Part shown: one piece after another, positions 2,645 through 20,045 of the stretch
Position numbering within the stretch: position 1 is the first letter of the stretch
How the letters are laid out: every line of letters starts with the position of its first letter
DNA from: an uncultured virus (IMG/VR IMGVR_UViG_3300015608_004663)
Taxonomy: Duplodnaviria; Heunggongvirae; Uroviricota; Caudoviricetes
Virus record (IMG/VR): IMGVR_UViG_3300015608_004663
Direction: 5' to 3' (one strand)
DNA: 64,000 nt
Translations under genes and position numbers: made by a program
Notes under the pieces: model-generated
The model's input: only the letters and a program-made list of their open reading frames with translations
Databases searched by the model: none
What the model was told of the DNA's origin: nothing

Positions 2645-2676
2645 AGCACGTCAGGTCGCACTGCGCGATCATCCTG

Positions 2677-3360: not shown

Positions 3361-3392
3361 TTGAGAGCGCCCTCGACGCGCGCGGGAGAGAA

Positions 3393-3422
3393 GTGCAATA
3401 GACTAGCCAGCTGAGTTACAGT
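3393..3422 (+). promoter_or_regulatory. Putative promoter GTGCAA-N18-TACAGT
   Basis: Recurring motif at the head of the small-ORF array. Confidence 0.6.
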
Positions 3423-3446
3423 GAGATCAGAGAGGGAGCAGACCGA

Positions 3447-3653: not shown

Positions 3654-3654
3654 G

Positions 3655-4039: not shown

Positions 4040-4218
4040 TCACTCTGTCAAATCTTGATCCCGGTGGGTTGATCCCGATCGGTTCGCCAAAAGCAGAGAT
4101 CTTGCTGCTTGTCATCGAAGCATCGGACTGTGTCAGGCCGCCAAGCTGCGTGATAAGGTTAGATCTTCGTGGAAAGAAATGCTCTATCGTGGTGACGCGA
4201 TGGCTAGATCAGCAGTAG
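4036..4218 (+). CDS. Small hypothetical protein (PGGLI family)
   Basis: GTGA overlap; LDPGGLI motif. Confidence 0.55.
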   Translation: MITLSNLDPGGLIPIGSPKAEILLLVIEASDCVRPPSCVIRLDLRGKKCSIVVTRWLDQQ

Positions 4219-4385
4219 GTGATCTTCTGTCAGTTAATGGTTTTATCATCATCGTTCTCGCTGTGACTGACAGCGAGACGATCTGCGCAGATCTTGACAC
4301 GTGGCGGTACTTTTTCAGCGTGAACAATCTTGGGTTGCCGAGTTCGTATAGAGTCCTCTGGTGCAGCTGTGATGAGATCCTCTGA
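4200..4385 (+). CDS. Small hypothetical protein (VGDLL family)
   Basis: ATG at 4200; AVGDLL motif. Confidence 0.55.
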   Translation: MARSAVGDLLSVNGFIIIVLAVTDSETICADLDTWRYFFSVNNLGLPSSYRVLWCSCDEIL

Positions 4386-4542
4386 AGATCGACAAGATCA
4401 AGCAAAGCTCGCGCCTGGTGATCTGGTCGATCTTGTTGTGATTGTGGCGATTCACTCTTTGCTGCCAGCAGCTTGGATCAGCATCGATTGTGGCAGGGCG
4501 CGTGCATCTATTGATCGCGCCGAAGAAAGCGATCAAAGATGA
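4372..4542 (+). CDS. Small hypothetical protein (PGDLV family)
   Basis: ATG at 4372; LAPGDLV motif. Confidence 0.5.
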   Translation: MRSSEDRQDQAKLAPGDLVDLVVIVAIHSLLPAAWISIDCGRARASIDRAEESDQR

Positions 4543-4867
4543 GCAGATCGGTGAGACAGCGCTTCTCACCCTGCAAAAGAAAACTGTCAGAAGATTGACA
4601 GATTCTGGTCTGTGCAACAGCGAGATAATCTGCTTAAGATCAGATCTGAAATGAACAAGCTAGCTGCGAGTTCTCTGCTTTAGTCAAGAGCACATCACTT
4701 TGATCTCTATCGCAGGAAGTAGGGATCTGAGCTGCTGATCATCACTCCCTCTTGCGAAAGAGGGAATCTTGCTCGCGTTGATCTGTGATCTGAATGCGCT
4801 GTCGTTTTCAGAAAAAGGTACGCCGTTGGGCCGCGGGATTGTTCGCTTTTAACTGAGTGTGAATCTT

Positions 4868-5056
4868 ATGAATTGGAAAGACTGGGACGATCTAACGCAA
4901 CCAGGAAATCTGCACAAGATTCCGTTAAAATCTGGTCTGTGCGTGCTATCTATGGTTGTGTCTACGGACAGATCTGGGTTCATCAAGTGTGCTCTTGATC
5001 TTGTGTCTGATCATCTTTATGTCGTGCAAGAAAATTCGCGCACGAGGCTGATCTAA
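4868..5056 (+). CDS. Small hypothetical protein (PGNL family)
   Basis: TQPGNL motif. Confidence 0.55.
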   Translation: MNWKDWDDLTQPGNLHKIPLKSGLCVLSMVVSTDRSGFIKCALDLVSDHLYVVQENSRTRLI

Positions 5057-5058
5057 GC

Positions 5059-5313
5059 ATGCGATCGACAAGCACTAAAGAATCTCCAGGATCTTTGTTT
5101 GTCACGGCGCACAACAGAACTTTGTTCCTGATCGTCAGCGAGCGCTGCCACTTGATTCTTGATTCAAAGCGCTGCACAATCTGGCGCAGATCTGTTGATG
5201 GCGTCACTCGAGCAATGGCTAGACTGCTGTGGAGCAAGAGCTGCCGAGCGCCAATTAAAAGATGTGATCCATGCAAAAACTCATTAACCTGCAAGAAACG
5301 CCAGGAACTCTGA
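5059..5313 (+). CDS. Small hypothetical protein (PGSLF family)
   Basis: ESPGSLF motif. Confidence 0.55.
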   Translation: MRSTSTKESPGSLFVTAHNRTLFLIVSERCHLILDSKRCTIWRRSVDGVTRAMARLLWSKSCRAPIKRCDPCKNSLTCKKRQEL

Positions 5314-5519
5314 TAACGAAGAAGCTAGTTGTTCAGTTCTGGAGAACGAGCACCTCGCTGCAGATAACAGTTTCAGTTCACAAGAGCTGCAATTTTTATT
5401 TGTGCGCTTTTCCTTCAGGAAAGGTAACGCTCGTGCGGGACGCTGCTGAGCAAGCGCAAGAAGAGCGTGTTCTCTACTCGCCAGAGTATTTTGATATGGT
5501 GACAAAGCTCGTGAAATGA
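5271..5519 (+). CDS. Small hypothetical protein (PGTLI family)
   Basis: ETPGTLI motif. Confidence 0.55.
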   Translation: MQKLINLQETPGTLITKKLVVQFWRTSTSLQITVSVHKSCNFYLCAFPSGKVTLVRDAAEQAQEERVLYSPEYFDMVTKLVK

Positions 5520-5623
5520 AAGCGCAATCATGGTTCTCAGCTAGCGGTCTGCAGTGATGCTCAGAGCAAGCGCAGTCAAGATCGCTTGGTGTTCAGAGAT
5601 CTTGATCGCAAAAGTGATCAAAC

Positions 5624-5890
5624 ATGTCAGAAGCTTACAGCAGAAATGCGTACTATGAACCTGGTGCGCTCATCATAACGAAAAGATCTGTGCATGACAC
5701 AGAACCAGTTTTCGAATTTGTGATTGCAGAAAAATTTGCTTTAGATCAATACGATGACAAGCAATTGAGAGTGACAAAACATATTTACAACATAAACGCT
5801 GATCATCGCGTAGAGCAAGTTGTGTTCTGGGACGGTTGCGCAGCACTTACGCAAGCACATGAGCGATCTAAGCAAAATTTTGACAGATAA
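5624..5890 (+). CDS. Small hypothetical protein (PGALI family)
   Basis: YEPGALII motif. Confidence 0.6.
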   Translation: MSEAYSRNAYYEPGALIITKRSVHDTEPVFEFVIAEKFALDQYDDKQLRVTKHIYNINADHRVEQVVFWDGCAALTQAHERSKQNFDR

Positions 5891-6088
5891 AATCACAGCA
5901 GCTGTATCATCATCAGTTGATGAAGCTCACGAGAAGATAAATCGCTTGCAAAACGTAGATCTTGGTCCGATTTTGCGATCTGCGATCAGGGATGCACTTG
6001 AATCAAAAGAAAATCATCGCAATGAATAAATGTGCACTTTGCAGTGCACTTTGATTAACAGCTGATATATATAAATTAAATCATAAAC

Positions 6089-6162
6089 GGGGATTGTACC
6101 TCAGCTGGTAGAGGGCTCGATTGAAACTCGAGATGTCGTGGGTTCGACTCCCATCGTCCCCG
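6089..6162 (+). tRNA. tRNA-Phe(GAA)
   Basis: Anticodon arm CTCGA-TTGAAAC-TCGAG; T arm GTGGG-TTCGACT-CCCAT; acceptor stem has a bulge; no encoded CCA. Confidence 0.85.
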
Positions 6163-6163
6163 C

Positions 6164-6247
6164 GGATAGGTGGCGGAAACGGCAGACGCGCAAGGCTCAA
6201 ACCCTTGTGCTCGCAAGAGCGTATGGGTTCGACTCCCATCCTATCTA
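6164..6247 (+). tRNA. tRNA-Leu(CAA)
   Basis: CAAGG-CTCAAAC-CCTTG; long variable arm; acceptor GGATAGG/CCTATCT. Confidence 0.9.
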
Positions 6248-6254
6248 CTTCCAA

Positions 6255-6354
6255 CAGAGAGTGGCGGAATTTATCTAGACGCGCTCGCTCCGCAGTTAAG
6301 CTTCTGCGAGTGAAGTCACAGTGCTTCGTGCAGGTGGGAATCCTGCCTCTCTGA
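6255..6354 (+). tRNA. Atypical Leu-like tRNA with enlarged anticodon arm
   Basis: Acceptor CAGAGAG/CTCTCTG, Leu-type D and variable arms, T loop TGGGAAT; 17 nt between CTCGC and GCGAG. Confidence 0.65.
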
Positions 6355-6355
6355 C

Positions 6356-6440
6356 GCGATAGTGGTGAAACTTGGTAGACACACTACGTTGAGAATGTAG
6401 TGCTCGAAAGAGCGTGTGGGTTCGACTCCCACCTTTCGCA
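6356..6440 (+). tRNA. tRNA-Leu(GAG)
   Basis: CTACG-TTGAGAA-TGTAG; long variable arm; canonical T loop. Confidence 0.9.
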
Positions 6441-6442
6441 CC

Positions 6443-6508
6443 GTCATAGATCAGAGTTCAAATCTCTGTTGCGTTACAAGCGCAATAGTTTAACGGTAAA
6501 ACAATGAC
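6443..6508 (+). ncRNA. Circularly permuted tRNA-like RNA (3' half before 5' half; YrlA-like topology)
   Basis: GTCAT, AGAT, T arm CAGAG-TTCAAAT-CTCTG, acceptor TTGCGTT-ACA-AGCGCAA, TA, D arm GTTT-AACGGTA-AAAC, A, ATGAC. Confidence 0.75.
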
Positions 6509-6517
6509 AACGCTTAT

Positions 6518-6592
6518 CTCTGCTTAGCGTAGTCTGGATAACGCACGAGTCTGCGAAGCTCGAGATCGTCAGTTCAAATCTGACAGCAGAGA
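6518..6592 (+). tRNA. tRNA-Arg(GCG)
   Basis: CGAGT-CTGCGAA-GCTCG; acceptor CTCTGCT/AGCAGAG. Confidence 0.85.
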
Positions 6593-6669
6593 CAGTCAGT
6601 GTTTGATTAAAATCGTGCCCGCTTCACACGCGCAACTAATCTTACAAACTAATCATCGCAGTCAATGCT

Positions 6670-6996
6670 GTGACAGATCAAACATTCACTGATCTTGACA
6701 AGATCAAGTCATCTGCAGAGATCTCTGCAATCTTCAAAAAATCTGATGGATTTTTAAGATCTTCGATGTTCACGGTTCGCTGGAATTCATCGGCGAGGCC
6801 GCGCTTAGCTGTCTGCTTAGCAAAAGTGAAGCGCGCAGTAGACAGAAATGCGCTGAAGCGCTGCGCAAGAGAAGCTTGGAGGACGCTTGATAAGCGACCG
6901 CCAGCAGATGTTGTCATCACCATCAACTCAGCTGCGATCGGGCAGACTAAAGAGCTATCAAAGCAGATCAAAATTTTCATGCACAAAATAAAATGA
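6670..6996 (+). CDS. rnpA: Ribonuclease P protein component
   Basis: KIKSSAEISAIFK, PRLAVCLAK and RNR-like motif KRAVDRNALKRCARE; 108 aa. Confidence 0.85.
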   Translation: MTDQTFTDLDKIKSSAEISAIFKKSDGFLRSSMFTVRWNSSARPRLAVCLAKVKRAVDRNALKRCAREAWRTLDKRPPADVVITINSAAIGQTKELSKQIKIFMHKIK

Positions 6997-7211
6997 ACAG
7001 CGATACACTGACACAGGTTAGCATTGTGTTTGACAACAGAGAATACGTTTGCTGGATACCGTCGCAGTTCGCTGCGCGCGGCAAGATCATATCAATTGAT
7101 GGTGTCGTAGAGCGCGGTGCTGTGAAAGATGTTTACTCTACTGTCAGCTACAGCGCAGCGAGAGAAAGATCTTCTGATTGGTCAAGGCAGCGCCGCGCAT
7201 CAGATATATAA
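6993..7211 (+). CDS. Hypothetical protein
   Basis: Overlapping ATG start. Confidence 0.6.
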   Translation: MNSDTLTQVSIVFDNREYVCWIPSQFAARGKIISIDGVVERGAVKDVYSTVSYSAARERSSDWSRQRRASDI

Positions 7212-7216
7212 TTTGT

Positions 7217-7801
7217 ATGAATTTCGCGCACAAACGATTGCTTCTCAGTTTTCTTAGAGAAGTGCTCGCTGTCAAGCACAAAGATTATGAGATATCTTCT
7301 AGATCTGATGCAGCTGACGAGATAAAACATGATGTGTTTCAGATAATCAAAAAATCTTACGATAAGATCGGTGGACACTCAAAGATCTCAAGCCCTGATG
7401 ACATAAAATCAGAGTATGATGACTGGATCGTTGCTGACACTGATGAAGATCCTGACATAGATGTTTTTGTTGGCGGAAACAAGAGAGGTTCAGGAATGAA
7501 GCTCGGTGCATCAGCTACTGATGGCTCTGCAGAAGCAAAGAATCACATGCTAAAGCTGAAGAAAAAGCTGTTTAGCAACGGCTGGTGGGCTGAAACTTCT
7601 GGTGCAGCCGCGCACATCGCGATCAACAAGCTCGGCGTTCCAACAGTCACAGACGAAAAAACAGTCAAGAAGCTGCTTGGTGATAAGCAGATCACTTGGC
7701 ACGGGCAGCACCCACATGGTGAATTTTCAAACACCTATGGTTGGTACTCCAGAAACATCGGCGGGCACGAACACATCAAGATCATTGTTGGTGATGTTTG
7801 A
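7217..7801 (+). CDS. Hypothetical protein (possible virion-internal protein)
   Basis: Long ORF; likely ATG at 7217. Confidence 0.7.
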   Translation: MNFAHKRLLLSFLREVLAVKHKDYEISSRSDAADEIKHDVFQIIKKSYDKIGGHSKISSPDDIKSEYDDWIVADTDEDPDIDVFVGGNKRGSGMKLGASATDGSAEAKNHMLKLKKKLFSNGWWAETSGAAAHIAINKLGVPTVTDEKTVKKLLGDKQITWHGQHPHGEFSNTYGWYSRNIGGHEHIKIIVGDV

Positions 7802-7811
7802 AATTTTAATT

Positions 7812-7841
7812 GTGCATACTGTCTTGCAATTTAAGTAGTAT
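7812..7841 (+). promoter_or_regulatory. Putative promoter GTGCAT-N18-TAGTAT
   Basis: Recurring motif 8 nt before a tRNA. Confidence 0.55.
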
Positions 7842-7849
7842 TTTTACAT

Positions 7850-7941
7850 GGGACGGTAGCTCACTGGTGGAGCAGGTGGCCTTATAAACCACTGTACGGT
7901 CTGATATACCGAAGGATTGGGTTCGATTCCCGACCGTCCCA
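7850..7941 (+). tRNA. tRNA with UAU (Ile) anticodon and long variable arm
   Basis: Acceptor GGGACGG/CCGTCCC, loop CTTATAA, variable hairpin CGGT...ACCG, T loop TTCGATT. Confidence 0.8.
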
Positions 7942-7942
7942 C

Positions 7943-8485
7943 ATGAACAAGACAATGTGTCGATTGTTGCTAATGACCACGTTAGCAGTGATGAATTGTG
8001 GTGATGCTGGTGTCGCGATATATGCAAGCGAGCCAGTGTGCGTAAAATCTGAATCAGGAACGACAGACACAGATCAGAAAATAATCTGCAAGATCTCTGG
8101 CTGTCCAGAAGATAAGATTATTGCAGAAGCTTTCTCAGTCGAAGACAAACCAGTCAGGTTGTTTTCTGTCAGAGTCAAACAGCCACATGCTCTGTATAAA
8201 TTGTGCATGAAAGTCACAGCAAAAGATGTGCTGAATGATCTTTCAGCTACAGCACCAGTTCAGTTTGTTCTTATTCGAGACGATTATGACAAAACAGTCA
8301 GAACGCTTGCGACAGCGTATGGTGCTATTGGAGACAGACAAGTCTCTAACATCGCTGTTGACGGTCGTGAAATATATGATGGTTCATATAATGTGATCGG
8401 TTATCCAAACACACCAGGCGGTCAACTCCAAGCGCTTCAGTGGAATGTGACAGGATGGATCGAGCGCTTGCGTAACTCATACTGA
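7943..8485 (+). CDS. Putative lipoprotein/secreted protein
   Basis: Hydrophobic leader ending in AVMNC. Confidence 0.6.
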   Translation: MNKTMCRLLLMTTLAVMNCGDAGVAIYASEPVCVKSESGTTDTDQKIICKISGCPEDKIIAEAFSVEDKPVRLFSVRVKQPHALYKLCMKVTAKDVLNDLSATAPVQFVLIRDDYDKTVRTLATAYGAIGDRQVSNIAVDGREIYDGSYNVIGYPNTPGGQLQALQWNVTGWIERLRNSY

Positions 8486-8492
8486 GGAGCAA

Positions 8493-8783
8493 ATGCTAGA
8501 TTTCACTCGATACATAACAAAATCAGAGTATGAAGAGCGACCAGACAGTGAAGAGGGTTCCAAAGCATACAGCGCTTGGAAAGAATCTAAGCAGAGACAC
8601 GAAGCTGAAGTCAAGCAAAACGTAACTAAGTTCATAGAAGACGCTCTAACAGATCTTGAGATCATCGATCATCCAAAAGCATACGAAGCATTTGACATAG
8701 CCTTCCAAGAGAAATGGATCTCTTCTGGCTACGCTGGCGTCTATCATCTTCTATCAGATATTGCAAAGCTCTTGAAAGACTGA
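8493..8783 (+). CDS. Hypothetical protein, paralog of 940-1263
   Basis: GAGGAG RBS; shared HPK..FD.A motif. Confidence 0.75.
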   Translation: MLDFTRYITKSEYEERPDSEEGSKAYSAWKESKQRHEAEVKQNVTKFIEDALTDLEIIDHPKAYEAFDIAFQEKWISSGYAGVYHLLSDIAKLLKD

Positions 8784-9100
8784 CGCGCGAGACTTGCTTG
8801 AGCAAATGTGATGCAAACACGAAGTCTTTGCTTGACTTGTCCAAGTCAATGGACTTTGTAAAGCTGCACAATCATAACGTCAAAACAATTGTTGATGCAA
8901 AACCAGGAGATGTATTCTGCGCTTTTGCTGATGATGATAGTTTAGACTGCTTGATCGTGTGCCTATCAACAGCTCACTTGATCCTAGCTCTGCGAGACGT
9001 TAAAGTAAATTCAATTTGCATCTTTCGCAAGCTAGAGTGGCAGGTAAGAAAAAACATCATCTTTGCTCACCGTCGCTTCATCAAGATCGTTGATTGTTAA
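8714..9100 (+). CDS. Hypothetical protein (PGDVF family); true start probably later
   Basis: AKPGDVF motif. Confidence 0.5.
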   Translation: MDLFWLRWRLSSSIRYCKALERLTRETCLSKCDANTKSLLDLSKSMDFVKLHNHNVKTIVDAKPGDVFCAFADDDSLDCLIVCLSTAHLILALRDVKVNSICIFRKLEWQVRKNIIFAHRRFIKIVDC

Positions 9101-9650
9101 TGGCAGTGATCATGCTTTGCAGATTGTAATCAGGCACTGATGAGATGATAGCAAGCGCTAATTTTTTAACGTTATTTTCGCAGCTGTGTAAAATGATCGG
9201 CTCTTTACCAATGATGCTCAGTTGCTCTTCGATTAATTTATCGATTTCGCTTGTCTGCTCTTCTGTGTGATATCTTCCCACTGCATCATAAGCGTGAGCT
9301 CTCTTCACAAAAACATCTAGCGAGTTAAAGCTGCGCTCAACAGTTCTAACAAGCGAAAAGAAAAGATTCTGATGTTGACCAGCGTAATACACAATCGAGT
9401 TTAGACTTGGTGAATCAGTGATCACAATATCAACTTTGTTCTTCAGTCTGTTGACTCTGTGCATCTGCTCACCAAACACATAGATCTGATCATCAAGAGA
9501 CTTGATCGACTCTTCCCACACCTTGTCTTTCGCAAACTCAGTCACAAGCTCGCAAGAAACACCAGCCCACCTCAAATACGCAAACAATCCAGCAGCCATT
9601 GCAGATTTCCCTGCTCCAGGCGCTCCGTGAAAATTTACAAGTAGTTTCAA
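9081..9650 (-). CDS. NadR/AAA_28-like P-loop kinase
   Basis: GAPGAGKS Walker A, ELVTEFAK, ITDSP. Confidence 0.8.
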   Translation of the reverse strand: MKLLVNFHGAPGAGKSAMAAGLFAYLRWAGVSCELVTEFAKDKVWEESIKSLDDQIYVFGEQMHRVNRLKNKVDIVITDSPSLNSIVYYAGQHQNLFFSLVRTVERSFNSLDVFVKRAHAYDAVGRYHTEEQTSEIDKLIEEQLSIIGKEPIILHSCENNVKKLALAIISSVPDYNLQSMITAINNQRS

Positions 9651-9707
9651 CTGTGTCTCTCCTGTTTGTTGTAGTGTAGTATTTATTTACTGAGCGCAAT
9701 TGAAGAT

Positions 9708-10127
9708 TTGTATCTGATACACGGTGCACAATCTGCAGCGAACCAGACAATGTCAAACAGAATCAAAAAAGATAGATTGAAATTTGCTATCAATCGCGCA
9801 TCAAGCGCTATCAGCATCTCAGCAAGATCAGACATTGATGTTGAACTAGACAAGTATGATTCTGATGTCTTCGATGATTTTGATTATGATTTTGAAAATC
9901 AATCGCGCAATGAAGACATAATATTTCACAACGCGATCGAGCCAACAAGCGGCGAGTTGTTTTATAACGATTTTGTGATCGTGATCATGATCAATCACAG
10001 CATGGCGATTATTGCAAGCGATCTAGATAACGAATCTCAGATCACTGATCTAAGACAAGAATCAAATTATTACATAAACAATTTAAGAAATGAAAGATCT
10101 GAATTCAGAGCAAAATTGGATCTATGA
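9708..10127 (+). CDS. Hypothetical protein
   Basis: ORF only. Confidence 0.55.
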   Translation: MYLIHGAQSAANQTMSNRIKKDRLKFAINRASSAISISARSDIDVELDKYDSDVFDDFDYDFENQSRNEDIIFHNAIEPTSGELFYNDFVIVIMINHSMAIIASDLDNESQITDLRQESNYYINNLRNERSEFRAKLDL

Positions 10128-10848
10128 TCTTATAGAGTCTTCTGATGAAGTAGACATTGAAGAGATCAATTCTGAGCAACTTTCAAGCACGATCTCAGAA
10201 AAGAAGCACAGAGAGCTTCGATCTGTCATCACTGGAGTTTGCAACTGCAGAGCGTGCAGAGTGTACAGGCGAGAGCGACAGAATTTGACGCTTTTAACGC
10301 AGCAAGCTAAGTGCGCAGACAAAGATCTGTCATTAGAGATCGGTCTAAACTGCATATTGATCTCTCCAACATCTCAAGATAGATTAATAATCAAGCAGTT
10401 GCTTGAATTGAATAACTTCGCGCTGATTCCCCGCTTGTCTTACAATGACATGCTCGCAGTGATCAAAGAGATTGATGTTGACTTGCTAGCGATGCCGCAC
10501 TGCGCTGTCTCTAGCAGTGGCACACAAATATATGTCACAGAGGGATCGTGGACAAGCAAGTTAAGCGAAGCATCGATCACAGCGATCTCTAGCATAAATG
10601 CGTTCCTGTCGTGCGCGGCTGCCCTAGCTAGGCACAGTGACACAATTTGGATCTTCGATATGCCTGACATAGCTGTTCACAGATCGCATCTGAAAGATTT
10701 CAGCAAAAAGTTATCGCAGATCGCGATGAAATACTCATCTAGGCTCGTGGTGATAACACAAAATCCAGAGCTTCTCGCTCACGCTGAGAATCAGTACGTC
10801 ATAAACTTAACAAAAATCACTCCATTAAATAGAAAGATAATACCGTGA
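10090..10848 (+). CDS. Hypothetical protein with degenerate ABC-ATPase-like C-terminus
   Basis: IWIFDMPDIAVH (Walker B/D-loop-like) and VVITQNPEL (H-loop-like); no Walker A. Confidence 0.5.
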   Translation: MKDLNSEQNWIYDLIESSDEVDIEEINSEQLSSTISEKKHRELRSVITGVCNCRACRVYRRERQNLTLLTQQAKCADKDLSLEIGLNCILISPTSQDRLIIKQLLELNNFALIPRLSYNDMLAVIKEIDVDLLAMPHCAVSSSGTQIYVTEGSWTSKLSEASITAISSINAFLSCAAALARHSDTIWIFDMPDIAVHRSHLKDFSKKLSQIAMKYSSRLVVITQNPELLAHAENQYVINLTKITPLNRKIIP

Positions 10849-11045
10849 ACATGCGAACGATTCCAGTCAGAAACAAGCAAAGAATAACTTTGCCCAAAAG
10901 AAGTGCTATTAGAGAAATTGTGTGCATTTTTCAGATCACATCCCAAGTGAATTTTTTTGGTGGGTTGAATCACAAGACGATGATTGCGGGTTGATCGATC
11001 GCAGATGCACTCGATGCGGAAAGCAATGTTAAAGAAAGAGCAAAC

Positions 11046-11597
11046 ATGAAAAGCTTGAAACGAGTACTTGTCATTGATGTTGAAGCAACTTGCTGGAAAA
11101 GTCAGAAAGACACTCCCGATAATGAATCAAGTGAAATAATTCAAATAGGCGCAGTTCTTGTTGACGCAGAGCAGCTTGTAAGAATTGACAAGCGACGAAT
11201 TTACGTTAAGCCTGAGAGATCGCGAATCAGTGATTTCTGCTCGCGCTTGACGGGAATAACAGAGAAAGATGTCGCGAACGGTGTCTCTTTTGAGAGCGCT
11301 TGCGAGCAGCTCAGAACAGACTTTAAATCAAAAGAGATACCGTGGGCAAGCTACGGTGATTACGATCGACACCAATTCATCAAGCAGACAAATGGTGCGA
11401 TTCCATTTGGATCTCGTCACATCAATGTCAAAACGCTTGCTGGTTTGGCGCTTGGTGAGCAGCACGAGCTCGGCATGGATGAAGCGCTCTCAAAATTAAA
11501 TCTAGAATTAGAGGGAAGGCACCATGATGCAGCAGATGACGCTTGGAACATAGCGAAGATCTTCATTCACTTGATGAAAAAGTGCCGCAGCAACTAG
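11046..11597 (+). CDS. DEDDh 3'-5' exonuclease (ERI1/KapD-like)
   Basis: VIDVEATC, EIIQIG, LTGI, HHDAADDA. Confidence 0.9.
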   Translation: MKSLKRVLVIDVEATCWKSQKDTPDNESSEIIQIGAVLVDAEQLVRIDKRRIYVKPERSRISDFCSRLTGITEKDVANGVSFESACEQLRTDFKSKEIPWASYGDYDRHQFIKQTNGAIPFGSRHINVKTLAGLALGEQHELGMDEALSKLNLELEGRHHDAADDAWNIAKIFIHLMKKCRSN

Positions 11598-11610
11598 TGA
11601 AAGGTGAAAC

Positions 11611-12924
11611 ATGTCATACATTTCAGAGATTCTTGAAGTAAGCGAAGCAAAAACTAAAAAAGAGAAGATCTCTATGCTGCGGAGCATGAGCGATGTGGCG
11701 TTCACGCTTATCGTCGCCGGAATTGATCCGTGGCAGATCTGGTTCGTGTCAGATGTGCCGAGCGGCGCTGATGAGCTAGAGTTTGGAGATCTTGATAGCG
11801 ACACTGCTGCGATTGCCTTTCTGCAGATACTTGATGAGCTCAAAACTGGGCAGTACAGAGGAAACGCCGCCACAGAACTTTTAACATCATTTTGGGCAGA
11901 GATTGGTCAGACTGAGCGTGAGATATTCGGAAGAATCTTGAGAAAAAAGATGCGCATTGGTGTTGGCATCTCGAGCATCAATGAAGCGCGACCTGGCACG
12001 ATCAAAGAATTTGATCTGCCGCTGTGTGATTCGCTCGAAGCAGTCATAACTGCTTCGACTATCGAGTGGCGCGGGAAGATCAAACCAGAATTGCCGTGCT
12101 ACGCCGATGTCAAGCTTGACGGATTGAGAGTTCTCTGCGTTCGCAGAGAAGCAGGCAGCGATTGGGAACTTTACACTCGCGGAGGTGATCTGATTGAGAC
12201 GATGCCTGGCGCGCAAGAAGCTCTAAAATCTTTTGTGCCCAAAGAACTCGGCGCTGTCATTCTGCACGCAGAGGGATACGGAACAAGCTGGGCTGATTCT
12301 GCTTCTTCGATCATGGCGAAGAAGCGCAGCAAAATTCAGAACGATCGTGGCTTACCGCTTTGGTTGTTTGACATCGTTGCTATGAGCGAATTTGATGGAA
12401 CTGCTGCACCAAAGACACCGTTTGAAGCTAGAAGGAATCTGCTAGTTTCACTGTTCGCAAGCGGAGAGCAGCAGTTCATCAAGCTGATGCCATCATATTA
12501 CGTAAAATCTGATGAAGATATCATCGCAGCCTTCAATGAAGCTACAAAATTTGGTGAAGGTCTTGTCTTAAAAAAGAGATCAGCAGTTCATCATCTTGGC
12601 AGATCGCAGAACTGGCTAAAACTGAAGCCGATCCAAACGTGGGAAGGCCAAGTCGTTGAAACGTTTGAAGGCAAGAATGGCACTCGCTTGGAGGGAGTCT
12701 TTGCTGGATTTCGCATAATCCTGCCTGAAACTGGAGCGATCACTGAAGTTGGCAGCGGCTTCACAGATGAGCAGCGACAGCAATACACGCGCAAACTTAA
12801 ACAAAATGCAAACGCTTTGAAAAACATCTGGATCGAAGTTGAAGGACAGCCTCCTCTGACAGAGGATGGCAGAATACGATTTCCAGTGTTCGTTCGAGAG
12901 AGATCATCTCGTGATCTAGGTTGA
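11611..12924 (+). CDS. ATP-dependent DNA ligase
   Basis: KLDGLR, EGLVLK, WLKLKP, VGSGF, RFPVF. Confidence 0.95.
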   Translation: MSYISEILEVSEAKTKKEKISMLRSMSDVAFTLIVAGIDPWQIWFVSDVPSGADELEFGDLDSDTAAIAFLQILDELKTGQYRGNAATELLTSFWAEIGQTEREIFGRILRKKMRIGVGISSINEARPGTIKEFDLPLCDSLEAVITASTIEWRGKIKPELPCYADVKLDGLRVLCVRREAGSDWELYTRGGDLIETMPGAQEALKSFVPKELGAVILHAEGYGTSWADSASSIMAKKRSKIQNDRGLPLWLFDIVAMSEFDGTAAPKTPFEARRNLLVSLFASGEQQFIKLMPSYYVKSDEDIIAAFNEATKFGEGLVLKKRSAVHHLGRSQNWLKLKPIQTWEGQVVETFEGKNGTRLEGVFAGFRIILPETGAITEVGSGFTDEQRQQYTRKLKQNANALKNIWIEVEGQPPLTEDGRIRFPVFVRERSSRDLG

Positions 12925-12975
12925 GAGAGATTTCAGATCAAAGATCCTGCCTGCAAACTTCAGATCAGATCTGCT

Positions 12976-13311
12976 ATAGCTTCTAAGCGTCTGTTTCGCT
13001 AGCGCGCAAACAAAGACAATTTCTGCCAAGCTCAATCTCTGGTTCAAAACAGCACACCAGACAGCGCTCGTGACCGCTTGTTCCAACCATAATAGATGCT
13101 ATGGTACCCCAAACAAGGGGTCACTGTGTGACTCTAGAGTGACACAAACAAGGTCTTAGCGATGACTTGGCTTGTGCTCTTTGAGATCAGTGACTGTCGC
13201 TTTAGCCACCAGCTAAAGCGCTTGAAATTTTGCAGGTTTGATGAAAGACAGCAGCTGATCAGCTGCTTTGAACTCTTGCGGTGACGGTAGAGATAAGATC
13301 TTAGAAGCTAT
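12976..13311 (+). ncRNA. Candidate ~335-nt highly structured ncRNA (strand uncertain)
   Basis: Perfect 12-bp closing stem ATAGCTTCTAAG/CTTAGAAGCTAT enclosing many nested helices; no ORF of 60 aa or more. Confidence 0.65.
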
Positions 13312-13628
13312 CGAATCGGCCGAGGAATAACAATTTGTAAGATGTAAAAGTCTTTGCTGGATGTCGGCGCGCCAACTGAAGATGAATCTTCAATCGTTAC
13401 AAACTTATCTTGCTCAGTTGCAGTAGCTTCACACTTTCCAGTCGCAGAGTTGCAATACGTTCTGCCTGTGCACGGCGGATCACAGATCACGCATATCTGT
13501 GGATGTGATTGATCTGGTAGCTTTGTTTTTGAGCACTGCGCTCCAAGCGTCACGATGAGCGATACGATGCTAAGCATCATCAAAATGTTTTTGACTGCGG
13601 TGCTGAATTTTTCTTCTTTTTCATTCAT
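13308..13628 (-). CDS. Membrane-anchored Cys-rich protein
   Basis: N-terminal hydrophobic helix; CVICDPPCTGRTYC...C. Confidence 0.65.
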   Translation of the reverse strand: MNEKEEKFSTAVKNILMMLSIVSLIVTLGAQCSKTKLPDQSHPQICVICDPPCTGRTYCNSATGKCEATATEQDKFVTIEDSSSVGAPTSSKDFYILQIVIPRPIR

Positions 13629-13632
13629 GTGT

Positions 13633-13818
13633 TTACAGCGTTATTTTGTTGCACGATCTGCAGTTGCATGATATCATGTGCACACAGATCGTTCCATCAG
13701 ATTTAACACCAGTTCCTTGACACTGATCGCAAGATTGATGCAAGCATCTTGCGCTAAGACTTGCTAGCATTTTCTGATATTTTGCGAAATTTACGTGATC
13801 TGCAAGCGGCATCTGCAC
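13633..13818 (-). CDS. Small Cys-rich (Zn-binding) protein
   Basis: CLHQSCDQCQGTG...CVHMISCNCRSC; AGGAG RBS. Confidence 0.65.
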   Translation of the reverse strand: MQMPLADHVNFAKYQKMLASLSARCLHQSCDQCQGTGVKSDGTICVHMISCNCRSCNKITL

Positions 13819-13903
13819 TCCTTTTAAATATGAGGTAAGCTCGCTGTGATAAAATGATCACAGCTTGTGGTGTTTCTTAAACTGCTAAAAGAAAGCTCGA
13901 GTA

Positions 13904-14263
13904 TCACTTGATGAACCATGTCGCTCGCTCATCGCCGTTGTGTTTAAGTTTCTTTGATAAAGGAGCGTAAAGATCGATGTCTGCGTGCACCGGCCCCCAG
14001 TCTGCAACTACAGCTTCAGAGCACAATTGCGTTCTGTTTACGCAGACTTGAACCAAAGTGTAGCACGGTATTTTCTTGTGCGCTACGATCAGACCCATTT
14101 CTATTAGCTTTTTGATGCGCTCAGTGGGTGGTTTTCTGTGAGCAACGCAAGCGAGGTGCGAGATGCGACCCATCGTGTTCCATGGGTCTCTGGTTGGGTG
14201 ATCAAACATTGTTGCTCGACCAGAAAAAATTGCAAGGAAGCAAGAAAGCAAGATAGCGAGCAC
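13904..14263 (-). CDS. RlpA-like double-psi beta-barrel protein
   Basis: VAHKKIPCYTLVQV...VVADWGP...DIDL. Confidence 0.65.
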   Translation of the reverse strand: MLAILLSCFLAIFSGRATMFDHPTRDPWNTMGRISHLACVAHRKPPTERIKKLIEMGLIVAHKKIPCYTLVQVCVNRTQLCSEAVVADWGPVHADIDLYAPLSKKLKHNGDERATWFIK

Positions 14264-14317
14264 GAAAACACTAGCTCCATCAGGAGCTAATTATATGCAT
14301 TATTTTGAATTAATTCA

Positions 14318-15850
14318 CTAATTTGTTTCATCATAGATGACAGAGCTTAGAGCTACAAAAGTCCTGCACACGCTCGCTGCGTTTTCAAAAGCGCACACAG
14401 CAGCAAGAGCAGAATCAATCAGCCAGATTGGATTGTGCACTATCTCATCATTCAAAGCATCATACGCATCTTCTAAATTCTTGCGAGAGACTGTGAACCA
14501 ATCAAATGAGCGACCAGCATTCTTCACGATAGCTCTAGCTGGTGCTTCTGCGCCAGCTTTCAAAATCTCTCTTGTCTGTGAATCTACGTCAGACATGTCT
14601 GTCATAGCTAGAGCGTCAAGCATCGCGGCGCCGCCGCCTCTAACAACACCGCTGATCAGAGCAGCTTTGCAGGCAGCTACTGCATCTTCTACTCTGTGCT
14701 TCTTCTCAATCATCTCTGCTTGAGTTGGAGCGACTATTCTTACGATCGCGTGCTTCGCAGCTAGTGAAGCTATTCTTGATTGAATAGCAACTCTCTCTCT
14801 GCTGTCTGCACACTCTTTCAGTTTCTCTGTCAAAAAGTCTATCTGGGAATTTACTCTAGACTGATCTTGCAAAATGAGAGCGCAGCCAGTTTTGTCAGCG
14901 TAGAATCGCTTGATCAACCCTGGTTTTGCTGGACTGTCAGCATCTGCGTCTAAAGGTTCAGCACCAACAGCAGCTGCGATGTCTGTGACTTCATCGTATG
15001 TCGGTCTGATCAGTTTGCAAGCGTAAACATCTATGTTTGCTTTTGTTCTGTTGTTAACGAGTGCTTGCAGAGCAGCTTGATCATAATCTGAGTACAGAAG
15101 TAACACAGCTATCTTTTGCTTCTGCGCTTCTTGCAGAACGGGTATGATGCTGGAGAATGATTGCAATCTGCCGCGAGAGATCACGACAAGCGTTGATTCT
15201 GCAGCGCAAGCTAGCTTGTTTTGAACGTTCGCAAAGTGCGCTGATAAGATCTCAGCTCTGATGATTATGCCATCAGAGATTGACACGCTTGTTATACCGG
15301 TGTCTGCTGACTCAAGCTGGATCTTTCCGTTTTCTCCAGCTCCCAAGACAGCATCAACTGCAACAGACGCTAATTCGCTGTCACCGTTAGCTGCTATCAG
15401 CGCCACTCGCCGAAGCTGCTCTTCTTCGCGACACGGTTTAGCAAGAGCTAAAAGATTTTTGGCGAATCTGCTAAAGATAACTGGTAATTCGCGCCTGAGC
15501 TTTGATTGCGAAAAATTAGCTGCGATTGCTCTCTCTGCTTGAGACAGCATCGCTTCGATCATAACTGTGCAGGTTGATGTTCCGTCACCAGCAGATTCAG
15601 CTGTTTTTCTTGCTGCGTCTTGCGCTAATTCTGCGCCCATCTTCTCAGCTGGATGCTTTGGAGACACAGATTTGCTGACGGTGACACCGTCTTTAGTTGC
15701 TATCGTTTTACCGTCTGTGTCTTTTAGTAGAACTGTGAGTCCGCAGGGACCCATGGTAGAGCTAACAGGATTTGCAACAGCGCGAACACCAGCTAGGAGA
15801 CGCTCTCTTGCTTCTTGACCTTGCAGTATTACTGTGTGCGTTTTATTCAT
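14318..15850 (-). CDS. groEL: Chaperonin GroEL-like protein
   Basis: TMGPCG, TKDGVTV, AGDGTST, GVVRGGG. Confidence 0.92.
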   Translation of the reverse strand: MNKTHTVILQGQEARERLLAGVRAVANPVSSTMGPCGLTVLLKDTDGKTIATKDGVTVSKSVSPKHPAEKMGAELAQDAARKTAESAGDGTSTCTVMIEAMLSQAERAIAANFSQSKLRRELPVIFSRFAKNLLALAKPCREEEQLRRVALIAANGDSELASVAVDAVLGAGENGKIQLESADTGITSVSISDGIIIRAEILSAHFANVQNKLACAAESTLVVISRGRLQSFSSIIPVLQEAQKQKIAVLLLYSDYDQAALQALVNNRTKANIDVYACKLIRPTYDEVTDIAAAVGAEPLDADADSPAKPGLIKRFYADKTGCALILQDQSRVNSQIDFLTEKLKECADSRERVAIQSRIASLAAKHAIVRIVAPTQAEMIEKKHRVEDAVAACKAALISGVVRGGGAAMLDALAMTDMSDVDSQTREILKAGAEAPARAIVKNAGRSFDWFTVSRKNLEDAYDALNDEIVHNPIWLIDSALAAVCAFENAASVCRTFVALSSVIYDETN

Positions 15851-15881
15851 GTCGATCTAGATTTAAAGCTCTAGATCGACA
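15850..15881. promoter_or_regulatory. 12-bp inverted repeat abutting the groEL start
   Basis: TGTCGATCTAGA-N8-TCTAGATCGACA. Confidence 0.6.
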
Positions 15882-15892
15882 ATGTTCATGAT

Positions 15893-17308
15893 TTATTTTC
15901 GCCAGTGCTGTCGCGATCCGATGAACGGCGGTCCGTCTTCATTTTCATCATACGCTTGGAAAAGTTTCTTTACTCTCTCTTGAAGCTCGATCATGCTCTC
16001 TTTTGCTTCGTTTTCATTGCAATACTTGCGACGCTTGCAGTACTCTGCAATGAATGCTACTGGCCAATCTTTTACAAGATCATACGCTTCATCAGCGTAC
16101 TGACCAAGCATAGCGCGCACTGCTGCGCTATCAATAGATTTGATCGTAACGATTTCATCAAATCGACCCGGTCGAAGCAACGTTTGATCAAGGGCGTTCT
16201 TGTCATTCACAGTGACAATCGTGACTTTGAGCTGCGTTGCAAGCCACTCAGCAAGCTCTAGGAGAGCGTGCTGCTTCTCAAGATTCGTTCTGTCGAAATC
16301 ATCAATGATCAGAGCACCAGGCTTGAAGATCTGGATGCTCTCCTTGATAGATGGGATGAATTTATCATCGATGTCTTCAACGCAGATCCTGAGAGCTTTC
16401 AAACCAAGCTTCTTGATGATAGCTTGAGCCATTGTGCTCTTGCCCGTGCCTGGAGGACCTTCTAACATCAGAGATCTGCTAAGACCAACATCAAGTGCTT
16501 TTTTGTAATTCAGAACTATCGCTTCAGTTCTAGCAGAAGTAGCAATAGAGTGAATATTGTCTTCTGTGAATGACAAGAATGACGTAGATGAGTATTTATA
16601 ATCATCGCGATCGTAACTAGATTGCCGATCAATTCGCTTTGCGATGATTACATTTGCATCTTTGAATCTTTCCCATAAGTGTCTAGCAACAATCTCTCTA
16701 ACAATGAGAACTTTCTCAGGCGCGCAATAGATCTTGACAGGTGCTACGTAAAACGTAGCGTGAAACGTAGAAAGTTCTTCCCAGCCAATCTCAACTCCCG
16801 GCTGAATCTCAACGAACGCAATCTTCTTTGCTGGTGCTTTTTCAAGATCGCCATCTGAGTGTTCAGATTGCTCGTGCATTTTTTTTGGCTTGGATCTGTA
16901 CATATCATAGATGATAGCGCTAAAATCTGTAGAGAAGGGAGTTATCCAACCATTTTCGTTGAAAAAATTGTCACCAATATTTTCAGCGAAAGTCGCAACT
17001 GTGTCAAGCATGTGAACAGCGTGCTCTGCTAAAGCTAGCGCAATGTTGTGATCTTTCTTGTGCGCTTTTGAAGCGATCTTGGGAATAGATGATAGCTCAG
17101 TCACAAACTGATGAGCAAATCGAAGGATTCTATTCTTGCGAATTGAATGGTAATTGTGCCAAAATGATTTGTTAGTGTCCCACCCAAGATCAGTTAGCAT
17201 GAGCTTGTTTCGCATAATAAGCATCTCCAATGTGTTATTTGAGTTATATCGCACAATTGTTATCGTTGCACTGCTGGAACCCAGTGCACAACAAAATTCT
17301 TTGCGCAT
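15893..17308 (-). CDS. AAA+ ATPase
   Basis: GPPGTGKS, LIIDDFD, LLRPGRFD. Confidence 0.9.
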   Translation of the reverse strand: MRKEFCCALGSSSATITIVRYNSNNTLEMLIMRNKLMLTDLGWDTNKSFWHNYHSIRKNRILRFAHQFVTELSSIPKIASKAHKKDHNIALALAEHAVHMLDTVATFAENIGDNFFNENGWITPFSTDFSAIIYDMYRSKPKKMHEQSEHSDGDLEKAPAKKIAFVEIQPGVEIGWEELSTFHATFYVAPVKIYCAPEKVLIVREIVARHLWERFKDANVIIAKRIDRQSSYDRDDYKYSSTSFLSFTEDNIHSIATSARTEAIVLNYKKALDVGLSRSLMLEGPPGTGKSTMAQAIIKKLGLKALRICVEDIDDKFIPSIKESIQIFKPGALIIDDFDRTNLEKQHALLELAEWLATQLKVTIVTVNDKNALDQTLLRPGRFDEIVTIKSIDSAAVRAMLGQYADEAYDLVKDWPVAFIAEYCKRRKYCNENEAKESMIELQERVKKLFQAYDENEDGPPFIGSRQHWRK

Positions 17309-18036
17309 TTCTCTCGTGTCACACCGCCATATTGGGTGCTCTGCAGCATCCAGACTTTAGTAGAGACTGACCATGGAAAATCAAACGCTGGCGAAGCTAG
17401 CATCGCACTAACAGACTCACCCCAGTGATCGTGAATTCGAAGAAAAAAGCGCTCCCACTCTTTCTGATAAACTTCTTTCGCAATTCTCCACGGAGAAACA
17501 AAAGCTGCGTAGAGAGCTTCTGACGCTAATCGTGGACCAATACCAGACACAACGTGCGATCTGCTGATAGCTTCTGCTATTGTTTCAGTGTTTGTTGAAT
17601 TGTCCTTTGCGCACCGACTCAGCGCTTCAATATCTTTAACGCTTATTACGCTGACCAGCGCTTTGCTAAGCACTTCGCGATCGAGATCGCGATCATTCAT
17701 GATCGCGGCCCAGACAAATCTGTGTCTATCAACAACAGCAAATCGACCGCAGCTTGTTTCGATCACAAGACCGACATGCTTCTGATCAGAATCTTTAACA
17801 TCATCAAATGACAAGAAAGTTGTAGAGCAAAAAGACAGAACGATCGCAGCGCCGCGCAGCTTCAACCACATTTTTTGTCCAGCAGCATCAACATCAGTGA
17901 TTGTGCGCGGGTAGCTTAGAGCATCAATGTTGCGACAAGATCTGCACTTCTGACCAAGTTTCACAGATCTGATTTCAGATCCGATAAAGCGCTGCAGCAA
18001 GTCTTTATACAGCGCGATCTCGGGTCCCTCTATCGT
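17260..18036 (-). CDS. Fpg/Nei-family DNA glycosylase-like protein with atypical start
   Basis: (T)IEGPE N-terminal motif, GQKMW, SGIGPRLASEALY (H2TH), HWVPAVQ. Confidence 0.7.
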   Translation of the reverse strand, partial: TIEGPEIALYKDLLQRFIGSEIRSVKLGQKCRSCRNIDALSYPRTITDVDAAGQKMWLKLRGAAIVLSFCSTTFLSFDDVKDSDQKHVGLVIETSCGRFAVVDRHRFVWAAIMNDRDLDREVLSKALVSVISVKDIEALSRCAKDNSTNTETIAEAISRSHVVSGIGPRLASEALYAAFVSPWRIAKEVYQKEWERFFLRIHDHWGESVSAMLASPAFDFPWSVSTKVWMLQSTQYGGVTREKCAKNFVVHWVPAVQR

Positions 18037-18388
18037 AGAGAGAGCACCAGCGCCAGTATCGCTTGAGCGGTCCATCACTTGGTTCTGTGTCACCAAGTTG
18101 TCCTTTGCAGAAAATAGCGTAAGATCTTTTTGCATACTCTCCGATTCCTTTTTGAGATAGCAGATCTTGATTGCTTGCCGCAGCTTGCGCAAGATTCAAA
18201 ATAAATCTTGTTCTGCGCTTGACAAAACCCAAGCACTTGACGCACGATTCAAGATCAGTCTGATCTGCTAACATGAGATCTTGAGGCGTTGGCCATTTAG
18301 TCATCAGCGCTTGCAGCTTGCTTGATTTTTTGTGGTGCTTTGTTGTTTCGCTTATCTTCTGTGCGTGATACATCTCCATCTTTGTCAA
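18005..18388 (-). CDS. MBD4-like HhH glycosylase, apparently N-truncated
   Basis: WPTPQDL, LGFVKRR, GIGEYAKRSYAIFC, EPSDGPLKRYWRW. Confidence 0.7.
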   Translation of the reverse strand: MTKMEMYHAQKISETTKHHKKSSKLQALMTKWPTPQDLMLADQTDLESCVKCLGFVKRRTRFILNLAQAAASNQDLLSQKGIGEYAKRSYAIFCKGQLGDTEPSDGPLKRYWRWCSLYDRGTRDRAV

Positions 18389-18563
18389 TGAAGTAAAGAT
18401 ATCCAGTTTCTTGCTTTAGAAGCAGCGTTTTAATGATGCGCTCTTTGCCATCAACTTTAGCAACAACTGTGACTAGATCTGGCGCTGTAGCAGTTGGTGT
18501 CGATCTGATGAAGTGCGTACCCGGACCTTTTTTGATGTTTAGAAGTGTGATTTTTTCTGACAT
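18297..18563 (-). CDS. Small basic protein, CC1-like chromatin protein motif
   Basis: GYLYFIDKDGDVSR. Confidence 0.5.
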   Translation of the reverse strand: MSEKITLLNIKKGPGTHFIRSTPTATAPDLVTVVAKVDGKERIIKTLLLKQETGYLYFIDKDGDVSRTEDKRNNKAPQKIKQAASADD

Positions 18564-18567
18564 GTGT

Positions 18568-19419
18568 TTATCTTTCTGCACTAATGGTGCTTGCCCACAA
18601 CGTTTCAAACGGAGCGATGAACTTAGCGATATCTTTCATTATTGATTTGAATTCCCACATCGTGAACCACAGAGCAACAGCTGCCCAGTCTCTTTTGGGA
18701 TTCGAGCATTGCAGTCTTAGCCACCCATCTTCTCCGTCTGCTGGATCAGCGAATTGGAGAAGTTGCATATTCATCTCAAATCGAGAGAGTTTTTCTTCAG
18801 AAAGCTGAAGAAGGTAATTTTTTAGCAGATCAGAATCACTTGAGAGCTCTGCAGCTGTTGCATCATCTTCTAAGCGAGGGATGCAATCAGACGCATCTCC
18901 CTTCAGAGATCTGTACACCAAGAAAGATCCGACGCCGGGAGGAACAAACAAAAAATCTTTTTTGATTGGATCGTACACCTGGACGCTGTCACCCAGCTCT
19001 GATACAAGCTGCAGGTAATCTCTGTCAGTTGACACTATGATGCTCTTGACTGAGCGAGAAGCTTTCCTAACAAGTCTTGCTATGACATCATCTGCTTCTA
19101 ATTCAGGATGTGACAGGACGCTGATAGGGAAGCTTTCACTTATCAGATTGATTACTTCTTTAGCTTGAGAGTAGAATGACACAGATGAAGGATCTTGCTT
19201 GCTCGCGTCTCTGTTTGATTTGTACTGCGGATCAATCTGCTTTCTGTGAGATGAAGATCCCTCTAAGATCATAATGACTCTAGTTGGTGAGAATTTTTCA
19301 ATGAGAGCTTTCAAACTGCGCAGAAAATTGAAAGCAATGTAATGATCGCCAGCGCAGAATCCACTAGCAGCTCTGTGCAACAAGCACATACCATCAAGAT
19401 AAAGAGTGATTGGTTGCAT
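18568..19419 (-). CDS. 5'-3' exonuclease/flap endonuclease
   Basis: LDG, YKSNR, LEADDVIA, STDRDYLQL, GDASDCIP. Confidence 0.9.
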   Translation of the reverse strand: MQPITLYLDGMCLLHRAASGFCAGDHYIAFNFLRSLKALIEKFSPTRVIMILEGSSSHRKQIDPQYKSNRDASKQDPSSVSFYSQAKEVINLISESFPISVLSHPELEADDVIARLVRKASRSVKSIIVSTDRDYLQLVSELGDSVQVYDPIKKDFLFVPPGVGSFLVYRSLKGDASDCIPRLEDDATAAELSSDSDLLKNYLLQLSEEKLSRFEMNMQLLQFADPADGEDGWLRLQCSNPKRDWAAVALWFTMWEFKSIMKDIAKFIAPFETLWASTISAER

Positions 19420-19422
19420 AGA

Positions 19423-19665
19423 TTATCTCTTGTTGTCAATCAAGAATTTTATTCTTTCAAGTTCTGAGCGAGACATGTGCTCGCATGAAATTTCATCGCA
19501 ATCAGCTGTGCAGATGTGTCTTCCTAGCAAGATATGAGTTGTGTCTGAGATTGCTCTCAGTTCAGTGTTGAGCTGAGACGTTCTCTCACCCAACTTAAAG
19601 CCATGTTTCTTACCAAGACAGAAGAAGTAAATGCAAGCCGCGAACGAAATAACAATATACAGCAT
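19423..19665 (-). CDS. Small membrane protein
   Basis: N-terminal TM segment. Confidence 0.6.
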   Translation of the reverse strand: MLYIVISFAACIYFFCLGKKHGFKLGERTSQLNTELRAISDTTHILLGRHICTADCDEISCEHMSRSELERIKFLIDNKR

Positions 19666-19667
19666 GA

Positions 19668-20045
19668 TTATCGCAGCAGTTTAAGATTTCGAGTTATCGG
19701 ATCAACGATCGCACTATCGATGGGACATGTTGCTATGCATGTTACAGTAAGAGACAAGAAAACAGTCTTACCTTCATCTATCACTTGATGAACCGCAACG
19801 CCTGCTTGCTTCAAGCGATCAAAAAGAGACAATAATTCTTTGTGATCGGAGCAAACTAGCACTATCTTTGTCATTGACGACGTGAGCCACTCTTGCTCAG
19901 CGCTAGACAGCGAGATCGCTTGTGAATCAGCTCTGCTTGCCAGACACAGCATGGACGCATGAGCGATCTGACCCGCAATCTTTCCAAGAGTTATCTTGGG
20001 ATGTTAAAGCAGATCTTCACGAAAAACAATGATCTGTTTTAGCAT
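19668..20045 (-). pseudogene. Peptidyl-tRNA hydrolase 2 with in-frame TAA at codon 14
   Basis: MLKQIIVFREDLL*HPKITLGKIAGQIAHAS...KIVL...VIDEGKT...VDPITRNLKLL. Confidence 0.85.

Follow-up and report, generated by a model that had tools for sequence, protein, structure and literature searches.

A stably folding, hairpin-rich non-coding gap between converging genes of a large uncultured phage

Phages carry large structured RNAs of unknown function, such as GOLLD and ROOL, which are often found near tRNA genes. Phage genomes also have a GC skew that follows the direction of transcription, and known invertons are close in size to the element considered here (positions 12976-13311). As regards the origin of perfect stems, it has been reported (PMC8794818) that template switching can create them and can invert their loops in a single event.

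The element lies in a 64,000-nt stretch of DNA (hereafter, the window) that belongs to a large uncultured phage: DNA near-identical to the window is contained in wastewater metagenome runs (n = 11), and a member of the ligase cluster sits on a contig of 168,832 nt, indicating a genome of at least 169 kb. A preliminary description had presented positions 12976-13311 as a ribozyme-sized, multi-domain structured RNA candidate in a region without ORFs. The absence of ORFs has been borne out, since the 383 nt between 12925 and 13307, free of entries in the ORF list, form a non-coding gap between two convergent genes. The first of these encodes an ATP-dependent DNA ligase (11611-12924, + strand; PF01068, E 4.7e-15; phrog_114, E 7e-62) and closes a + strand block of replication and repair genes. 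The second, a conserved Cys-rich gene of 106 aa (13308-13628, - strand), is the final gene of the - strand block, downstream of the GroEL gene (14318-15850), which was recognised by domain and family searches. The 106-aa ORF has no match in Pfam, PHROG or NCBIfam searches; judging by 60% identity to its counterpart in the relative L001 (6021-6407), it is a real gene.

The coding strand flips at the gap, with + strand genes up to the ligase and almost all genes on the - strand from 13308 onwards. The GC skew changes sign there and its cumulative maximum falls in the bin 12001-14000, which places the element at the convergence of two transcription blocks. As there is no gene downstream of the gap on either strand, both flanking genes being convergent, a role as a 5' leader is excluded in this phage. 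A six-frame comparison of the gap with that of L001 revealed no conserved reading frame.

With respect to the gene content of the window, a 5-hmdU DNA kinase helical domain (PF18723, E 2e-103) is encoded at 47975-48949 (-), and the window further encodes ThyX, thymidylate synthase, dCMP deaminase, dUTPases and an MT-A70 methylase; this gene set, kinase included, suggests a hypermodified thymidine in the phage DNA. The alpha subunit of DNA polymerase III is split into two pieces about 3.6 kb apart (36965-38488 and 42118-44349, both -), a finger/HhH part and a PHP/NTPase part, between which lie ThyX, an HD-domain gene and others.

A DNA search of 50,697 phage records with the element and with 10000-17000 gave no match, and the ligase and GroEL proteins reach less than 30% identity in the same records. 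Searches of IMG/VR by the ligase, by the 106-aa gene and by two DNA patterns of the core (see below) retrieved no close relative. Among metagenomic proteins, ligase relatives are found at 75-76% identity (clusters P0002 and P0003) and at 51-57% (P0005-P0012). The relatives compared were L001-L004, obtained from a metagenome scan, and L006, from a species-genome collection, L001 being the only usable syntenic one. Its ligase is 76% identical at the protein level, and the syntenic gene order consists of the ligase, a 397-nt ORF-free stretch, a membrane-like ORF of 97 aa (5712-6005, +) and the converging homologue of the 106-aa gene. The 97-aa ORF, which has two hydrophobic stretches, has no counterpart or remnant in the window. 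In L002 and L003 (ligase 53-54% identical) a further + strand gene directly follows the ligase, leaving no gap; L004 is a fragment; and L006 (ligase 31%) has an unrelated gap, with a z of -1.36 and no match to the core model R1. The junction is thus plastic, a site of gene gain or loss among relatives. The covariance models used, R1 and R2, are single-sequence models (the window stretch aligned with itself), and a search with covariance models detected no second copy of the element in the window or in L001-L006.

Folded as RNA, the + strand of 12976-13311 has a minimum free energy (MFE) of -123.8 kcal/mol (z -6.69), which none of 100 dinucleotide shuffles equalled; an energy at the level of shuffles, which the preliminary description had named among the evidence against its proposal, was therefore not what was found. 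The - strand reaches a z of -3.93, the + strand without the terminal stem -4.22, and the inner domains -3.0 (13058-13183) and -4.45 (13185-13260). The MFE structure consists of 115 pairs, 12 of them G-U, and closes with long-range helices (12976/13311, 13019/13294, 13041/13274 and 13050/13265) around two domains. The ensemble is well defined, most helices having a pair probability of at least 0.9. With DNA energy parameters the z values are -6.17 and -4.42 on the two strands, the same picture, and folding thus cannot separate an RNA from single-stranded DNA.

The arms of the terminal inverted repeat found by the inverted-repeat scan, ATAGCTTCTAAG (12976-12987) and CTTAGAAGCTAT (13300-13311), are 100% complementary and 312 nt apart, in agreement with the perfect 12-bp terminal stem described earlier. 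The right arm overlaps the stop codon of the 106-aa gene (ORF end 13308), and no further copy of the arms exists in the window or in loci L001-L005. All other hairpins previously named are also present in the sequence. The hairpin nearest the ligase stop, GTCTGTTTCGC / GCGcAAACaaAGAC (12989-13019, +), has a z of its own of -2.2. Further on, the inverted-repeat scan and the pair probabilities define, on the + strand, a two-tier hairpin at 13070-13124, with a 13-bp outer stem containing a G/G mismatch and a 6-bp inner stem, and the near-palindromic hairpin TGTGTgACTC-TA-GAGTgACACA at 13125-13146. A perfect 9-bp hairpin, CGCTTTAGC/GCTAAAGCG, with a 5-nt loop occupies 13198-13220 (+), and the palindrome AGCAGCTGA/TCAGCTGCT at 13250-13267 is terminator-like on the - strand, 41 nt past the stop of the 106-aa gene.

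The helices proposed before exist, although the CTTGGC of the GCCAAG/CTTGGC helix begins at 13167, not at 13166; when their nesting is forced (GCCAAG/CTTGGC, TCTGGT/ACCAGA and the local AGCAGCTG palindrome), however, the energy obtained is -104.1 kcal/mol, about 20 worse than the MFE, which prefers other long-range pairs. The AATTTC/GAAATT pseudoknot is available as sequence, but both partners are paired elsewhere in the MFE. The motif GTGAC occurs 5 times against 0.35 expected, and is not common to L001.

It has to be taken into account that real phage sequence varies in foldability far more than its shuffles do, the residual SD after regression on G+C being 8.7 kcal/mol for 336-nt grid windows. 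Ranking by RNALfold, on both strands of the whole window, of structures of 250-350 nt whose boundaries were optimised everywhere gave the element (12974-13314, +) a residual z of -2.59 and the 7th place among non-overlapping structures, and several of the loci that outrank it lie in or antisense to coding regions. The top local folding of the window (2846-3138, +; residual z -3.6) is found within a block, 2000-4400, whose G+C content is 55% (43% in the window) and which contains back-to-back + strand ORFs of 60-68 codons, as well as a 19-bp perfect inverted repeat at 2928/3019. Regarding perfect inverted repeats of at least 12 nt within 400 nt, there are 12 distinct ones in the window, against a mean of 3.9 seed-level hits in shuffles; such repeats occur at about chance frequency, and the terminal 12-bp stem is not significant by itself. 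Two longer ones lie inside genes: a 14-bp repeat in an exonuclease gene (11288-11301/11482-11495, 180 nt apart) and a 16-bp repeat in an AAA-ATPase gene (16197-16212/16564-16579, 351 nt apart), both perfect. The window contains 626 GATC sites (9.8 per kb; 14.8 per kb in L001) for a Markov expectation of 674, a frequency that is explained by trinucleotide composition. GATC clustering was dropped as a special property of the element, as it is genome-wide and denser in other places.

The search with Rfam 15 at the gathering score over 1-64000 yielded 8 tRNAs and nothing else, and at E<=10 over 12800-13500 it returned three hits, all of them at chance level (E 3.9-6.8) and to small families that are unrelated. 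This Rfam model search supports the earlier statement that the RNA could not be assigned to any family. RNase P models gave no match at the gathering score in 1-64000, at E<=10 in 12800-13500 (701 nt) or at E<=1 in 1-21000. The sequence GAGGAAAGTCC, which we take to be the CR-I/P4 strand motif of bacterial RNase P RNA, occurs with up to 2 mismatches 7 times in the window (shuffle mean 11.2) and 0 times in 12925-13311.

The presence of rnpA in this phage, mentioned in the preliminary description, is confirmed by a PF00825 match at 6670-6996 (+; E 5e-11, 43 bits against a cut-off of 22.3); the score of the encoded protein against TIGR00188, 35.4 bits, is just under the cut-off of 38.35. This gene adjoins tRNAs at 6089-6593 and 7850-7942 and is 6 kb from the element, and a tblastn search with its product at E<=1e-3 found nothing in the 50,697 phage records. 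An RNase P protein encoded by a phage beside its own tRNA genes may be of more interest in this window than the element itself. The tRNA at 7850-7942 (+), assigned by ARAGORN as tRNA-Ile with anticodon TAT, has 93 nt, which is long for a tRNA-Ile, and the lowest Rfam tRNA score of the eight (44.2 bits).

In L001, the stability of the gap does not exceed that of its shuffles (z -0.14 on the + strand and -0.65 on the -), its core has z values of -0.02 and -0.23, and only 29 nt at 79% identity stand out when the two gaps are aligned by BLAST. The sole part of the element with detectable homology is a core at 13046-13155 (+), whose model finds L001 5478-5587 with 18.1 bits when only sequence is used (E 2e-4 in 106 kb) and with 19.3 bits when structure is added. 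From these scores the core homology is taken as real, the structure contributing about 1 bit. Ungapped identity in the core is 61/110, against 72.5% for the ligase gene as a whole and 47.5% for its third codon positions; consequently, the spacer evolves near the neutral rate, with short conserved islands.

Taking the MFE helices on the pairwise alignment, 21 of the 31 core pairs are kept in L001, 7 of them through changes on both sides, and five of these seven fall in the outer stem (13070-13082/13112-13124), which is kept in register. Slid controls give 0-3 double-sided changes and shuffles 3.5 +/- 1.3, with 4 of 500 shuffles reaching 7, although such controls favour the observed structure, which was derived from one of only two sequences compared. 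In the hairpin 13125-13146, three transitions in the 3' arm of L001 turn Watson-Crick pairs into G-U pairs, a change that is tolerated on the + strand only. Over the whole element, aligned by MAFFT, L001 can form 23 of 50 pairs of the outer helices, 23 of 40 in domain A and 8 of 25 in domain B, so that pairing is at chance level except in domain A. These counts, together with the shuffle-level folding of the L001 gap, do not sustain the proposal of a ribozyme-sized multi-domain RNA, and the original interpretation is only partly supported.

Variation between near-identical strains was studied in contigs from four runs: those of X9, X10 and X11 cover the flanks only, and the element is spanned in X5 alone. 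There a single contig of X5 includes it entirely and differs from the window at 8 of 1301 nt. Five differences correspond to a single replacement, CACCA>TGGTG at 13207-13211, that is, the reverse-complemented loop of the perfect 9-bp hairpin at 13198-13220, the stem of which is intact; it is a natural polymorphism, by template switch or by inversion. An inverted loop on an intact stem is the signature of template switching in replication, which is the likely origin of the perfect stems as well as of the inverted loop. Template switching may be a mutational, and not necessarily selective, source of the numerous perfect stems of the element. Another difference, G13235A, faces U13222 in the predicted structure, where it replaces a G-U pair by A-U.

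As for transcription signals, a sigma-70-like promoter scan of 12500-14000 detected none. Two terminator-like sites were found in the region, both on the - strand (shuffles of the region, 1.3 +/- 1.2): the better one, 13267>13250, has 7 pairs, 4 of them G-C, and the tail GTCTTTCATC, and is among the better sites in 1-20000; the weaker one is 13132>13120. The + strand of the gap holds no site that follows the stem-plus-U-tract rule of the scan. Terminator-like sites are enriched in 1-20000 (29 against 17.7 +/- 4.0 in shuffles). L001 has two terminator-like hairpins: one, on the + strand, lies within the shared core (5503-5521), and the other (5995-6014) follows the extra ORF and closes its junction.

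Because the large fold is not kept in L001, local hairpins that stop transcription or stabilise transcripts are a more likely explanation than a new ribozyme-sized RNA. It is proposed that the gap is a lineage-specific, hairpin-rich non-coding spacer made up of putative terminator and 3'-end hairpins, a reading to which we give about an even chance. According to this proposal, the hairpins would act locally, stopping or pausing transcription that arrives from both sides, and would protect the 3' ends of both converging messages. The ~110 nt of 13046-13155 would be an older, shared piece of the junction; the long-range stems that close the 336-nt fold would be private to the lineage and probably incidental; and the perfect stems would likely have been made and kept by template switching in replication. 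The position at the strand switch, the - strand terminator-like site, the enrichment of such sites and the terminator-like hairpins of L001 point in this direction, as do the unconserved fold, the plasticity of the junction, the lack of a promoter in the scan and the fact that other loci fold as well. Against it, a z of -6.7 and an ordered ensemble exceed what a few terminators need, and the ligase message would run through over 300 nt of structured sequence before reaching the best terminator candidate, no site being found on the + strand. The 7 double-sided changes of the core, the three transitions that keep pairing on the + strand only and G13235A, which turns G-U into A-U in X5, also speak against it; together with the ordered ensemble, they are consistent with an RNA structure under selection, in the core if nowhere else.

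This last consideration leads to the possibility, tentative and on the unlikely side, of a novel, narrowly distributed phage ncRNA on the + strand, with a functional part of two or three hairpins in the ~110-nt core that has been elaborated to ~340 nt, and which would arise either by processing of the ligase message at its 3' end or as a transcript of its own. The strand difference in folding (z -6.69 on the + strand, -3.93 on the -), the 12 G-U among 115 MFE pairs, the well-defined ensemble, the 21 of 31 core pairs kept with 7 double changes and the improvement of a pair by G13235A are all in its favour, and the core was found at E 2e-4 although ligase third codon positions are only 47.5% identical. 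It is weakened by the absence of an Rfam family, by the ~1 bit that structure adds on L001, whose core and gap do not exceed shuffles in stability, and by the dependence of the comparison on just two sequences, with the structure taken from one of them. Nor is there a promoter-like site in 12500-14000; no second copy of the element exists in the window or in L001-L006, and it ranks 7th in the folding background of the phage itself. That the core, elaborated to ~340 nt, is a new phage-specific structured RNA transcribed from the + strand where the replication and repair genes end, unrelated in function to the described families and belonging to a wastewater lineage with an RNase P protein of its own, is held as doubtful, and so is the function that such an RNA could have, for instance as a stable 3'-derived RNA binding a phage or host protein.

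A feature acting at the level of DNA, with no RNA role, such as inert palindromes accumulated by template switching in a spacer free of constraint, or a replication terminus or recombination hot spot at the strand switch, is distinctly unlikely. DNA parameters give z values equally strong on both strands (-6.17 and -4.42), and the loop inversion is a signature of DNA replication (PMC8794818). The element is at the cumulative GC-skew maximum, the gene content of the junction differs between relatives, and long perfect inverted repeats also occur within genes of this phage. RNA parameters favour the + strand, however, and the wobble-preserving changes of the core are strand-specific; moreover, skew in phages tracks the direction of transcription, so that its peak is not necessarily the site of a terminus.

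Two further readings are highly improbable. A mobile or invertible element with the 12-bp inverted repeats as its ends (a MITE-like insertion or a fimS-like inverton) would account for the perfect terminal arms 312 nt apart, although such repeats are expected a few times per window by chance, and for a size near that of known invertons, but it failed the tests on duplication, copies and recombinase. There is no target-site duplication, the flanks TGCT and CGAA being different; no other copy is found in the window or in loci L001-L005; and no recombinase or transposase domain was detected among the 71 ORFs scanned. In addition, part of the interior has its homologue at the corresponding site of L001, which is not what a clean insertion would show, the contigs of the four runs contain no joints, and an invertible promoter would drive nothing, since both flanking genes point inward. 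A small protein gene within the gap, such as the 40-codon ORF at 13162-13284 (+), has an ATG start with AAGG 8 nt upstream; it is not conserved in L001 and matches no family, and the loop inversion of X5 would turn its His-Gln into Trp-Trp, so this reading also failed. A divergent RNase P RNA, partner of the phage RnpA-like protein, is barely conceivable: the length and the presence of rnpA had suggested it in the preliminary description, and the rnpA-like gene lies at a tRNA cluster 6 kb away, but no covariance model matched at any threshold tried, CR-I is absent from the element with window-wide matches at chance, and L001 does not keep the fold.

Should the core turn out to be an RNA under selection, the phage ncRNAs would gain a narrowly distributed member, from an uncultured wastewater lineage whose equipment is unusual (rnpA-like gene, GroEL, 5-hmdU DNA kinase and split Pol III alpha). 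If the ordinary reading of a hairpin-rich spacer holds, the locus serves as a caution, since a perfect closing stem of 12 bp and a z of about -7 against shuffles would have arisen in a phage spacer without a conserved RNA, and the background of the genome itself plus one relative sufficed to show that the fold can mislead. The inverted loop, found in nature between strains that are near-identical, is a clean case of probable template switching on a phage hairpin.

Compared with described systems, the element resembles bacterial RNase P RNA (RF00010 / RF00011) in its size range (~330-400 nt), in ending in a terminal helix and in the presence of an RnpA-like protein in the phage, and it differs from it in lacking a model match and a CR-I/P4-type motif and in a fold that is unconserved in the relative. 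GOLLD and ROOL (PMC12286853) are large and ornate phage-associated RNAs; the element is smaller, is 6 kb from the tRNA clusters, has no Rfam match and gives no sign of a conserved multi-domain architecture. With the template-switch hairpins of PMC8794818 it shares perfect stems and a loop flipped as a unit, although that work deals with known RNA genes, and here the RNA role is only putative. Unlike a pair of bidirectional intrinsic terminators or 3'-end stabilisers, it is far longer and more interlocked, has no + strand stem-plus-U-tract and contains a 110-nt core common with a relative; like them, it is located between converging genes and has G+C-rich perfect stems, a U-rich tail at one - strand site and low sequence conservation.
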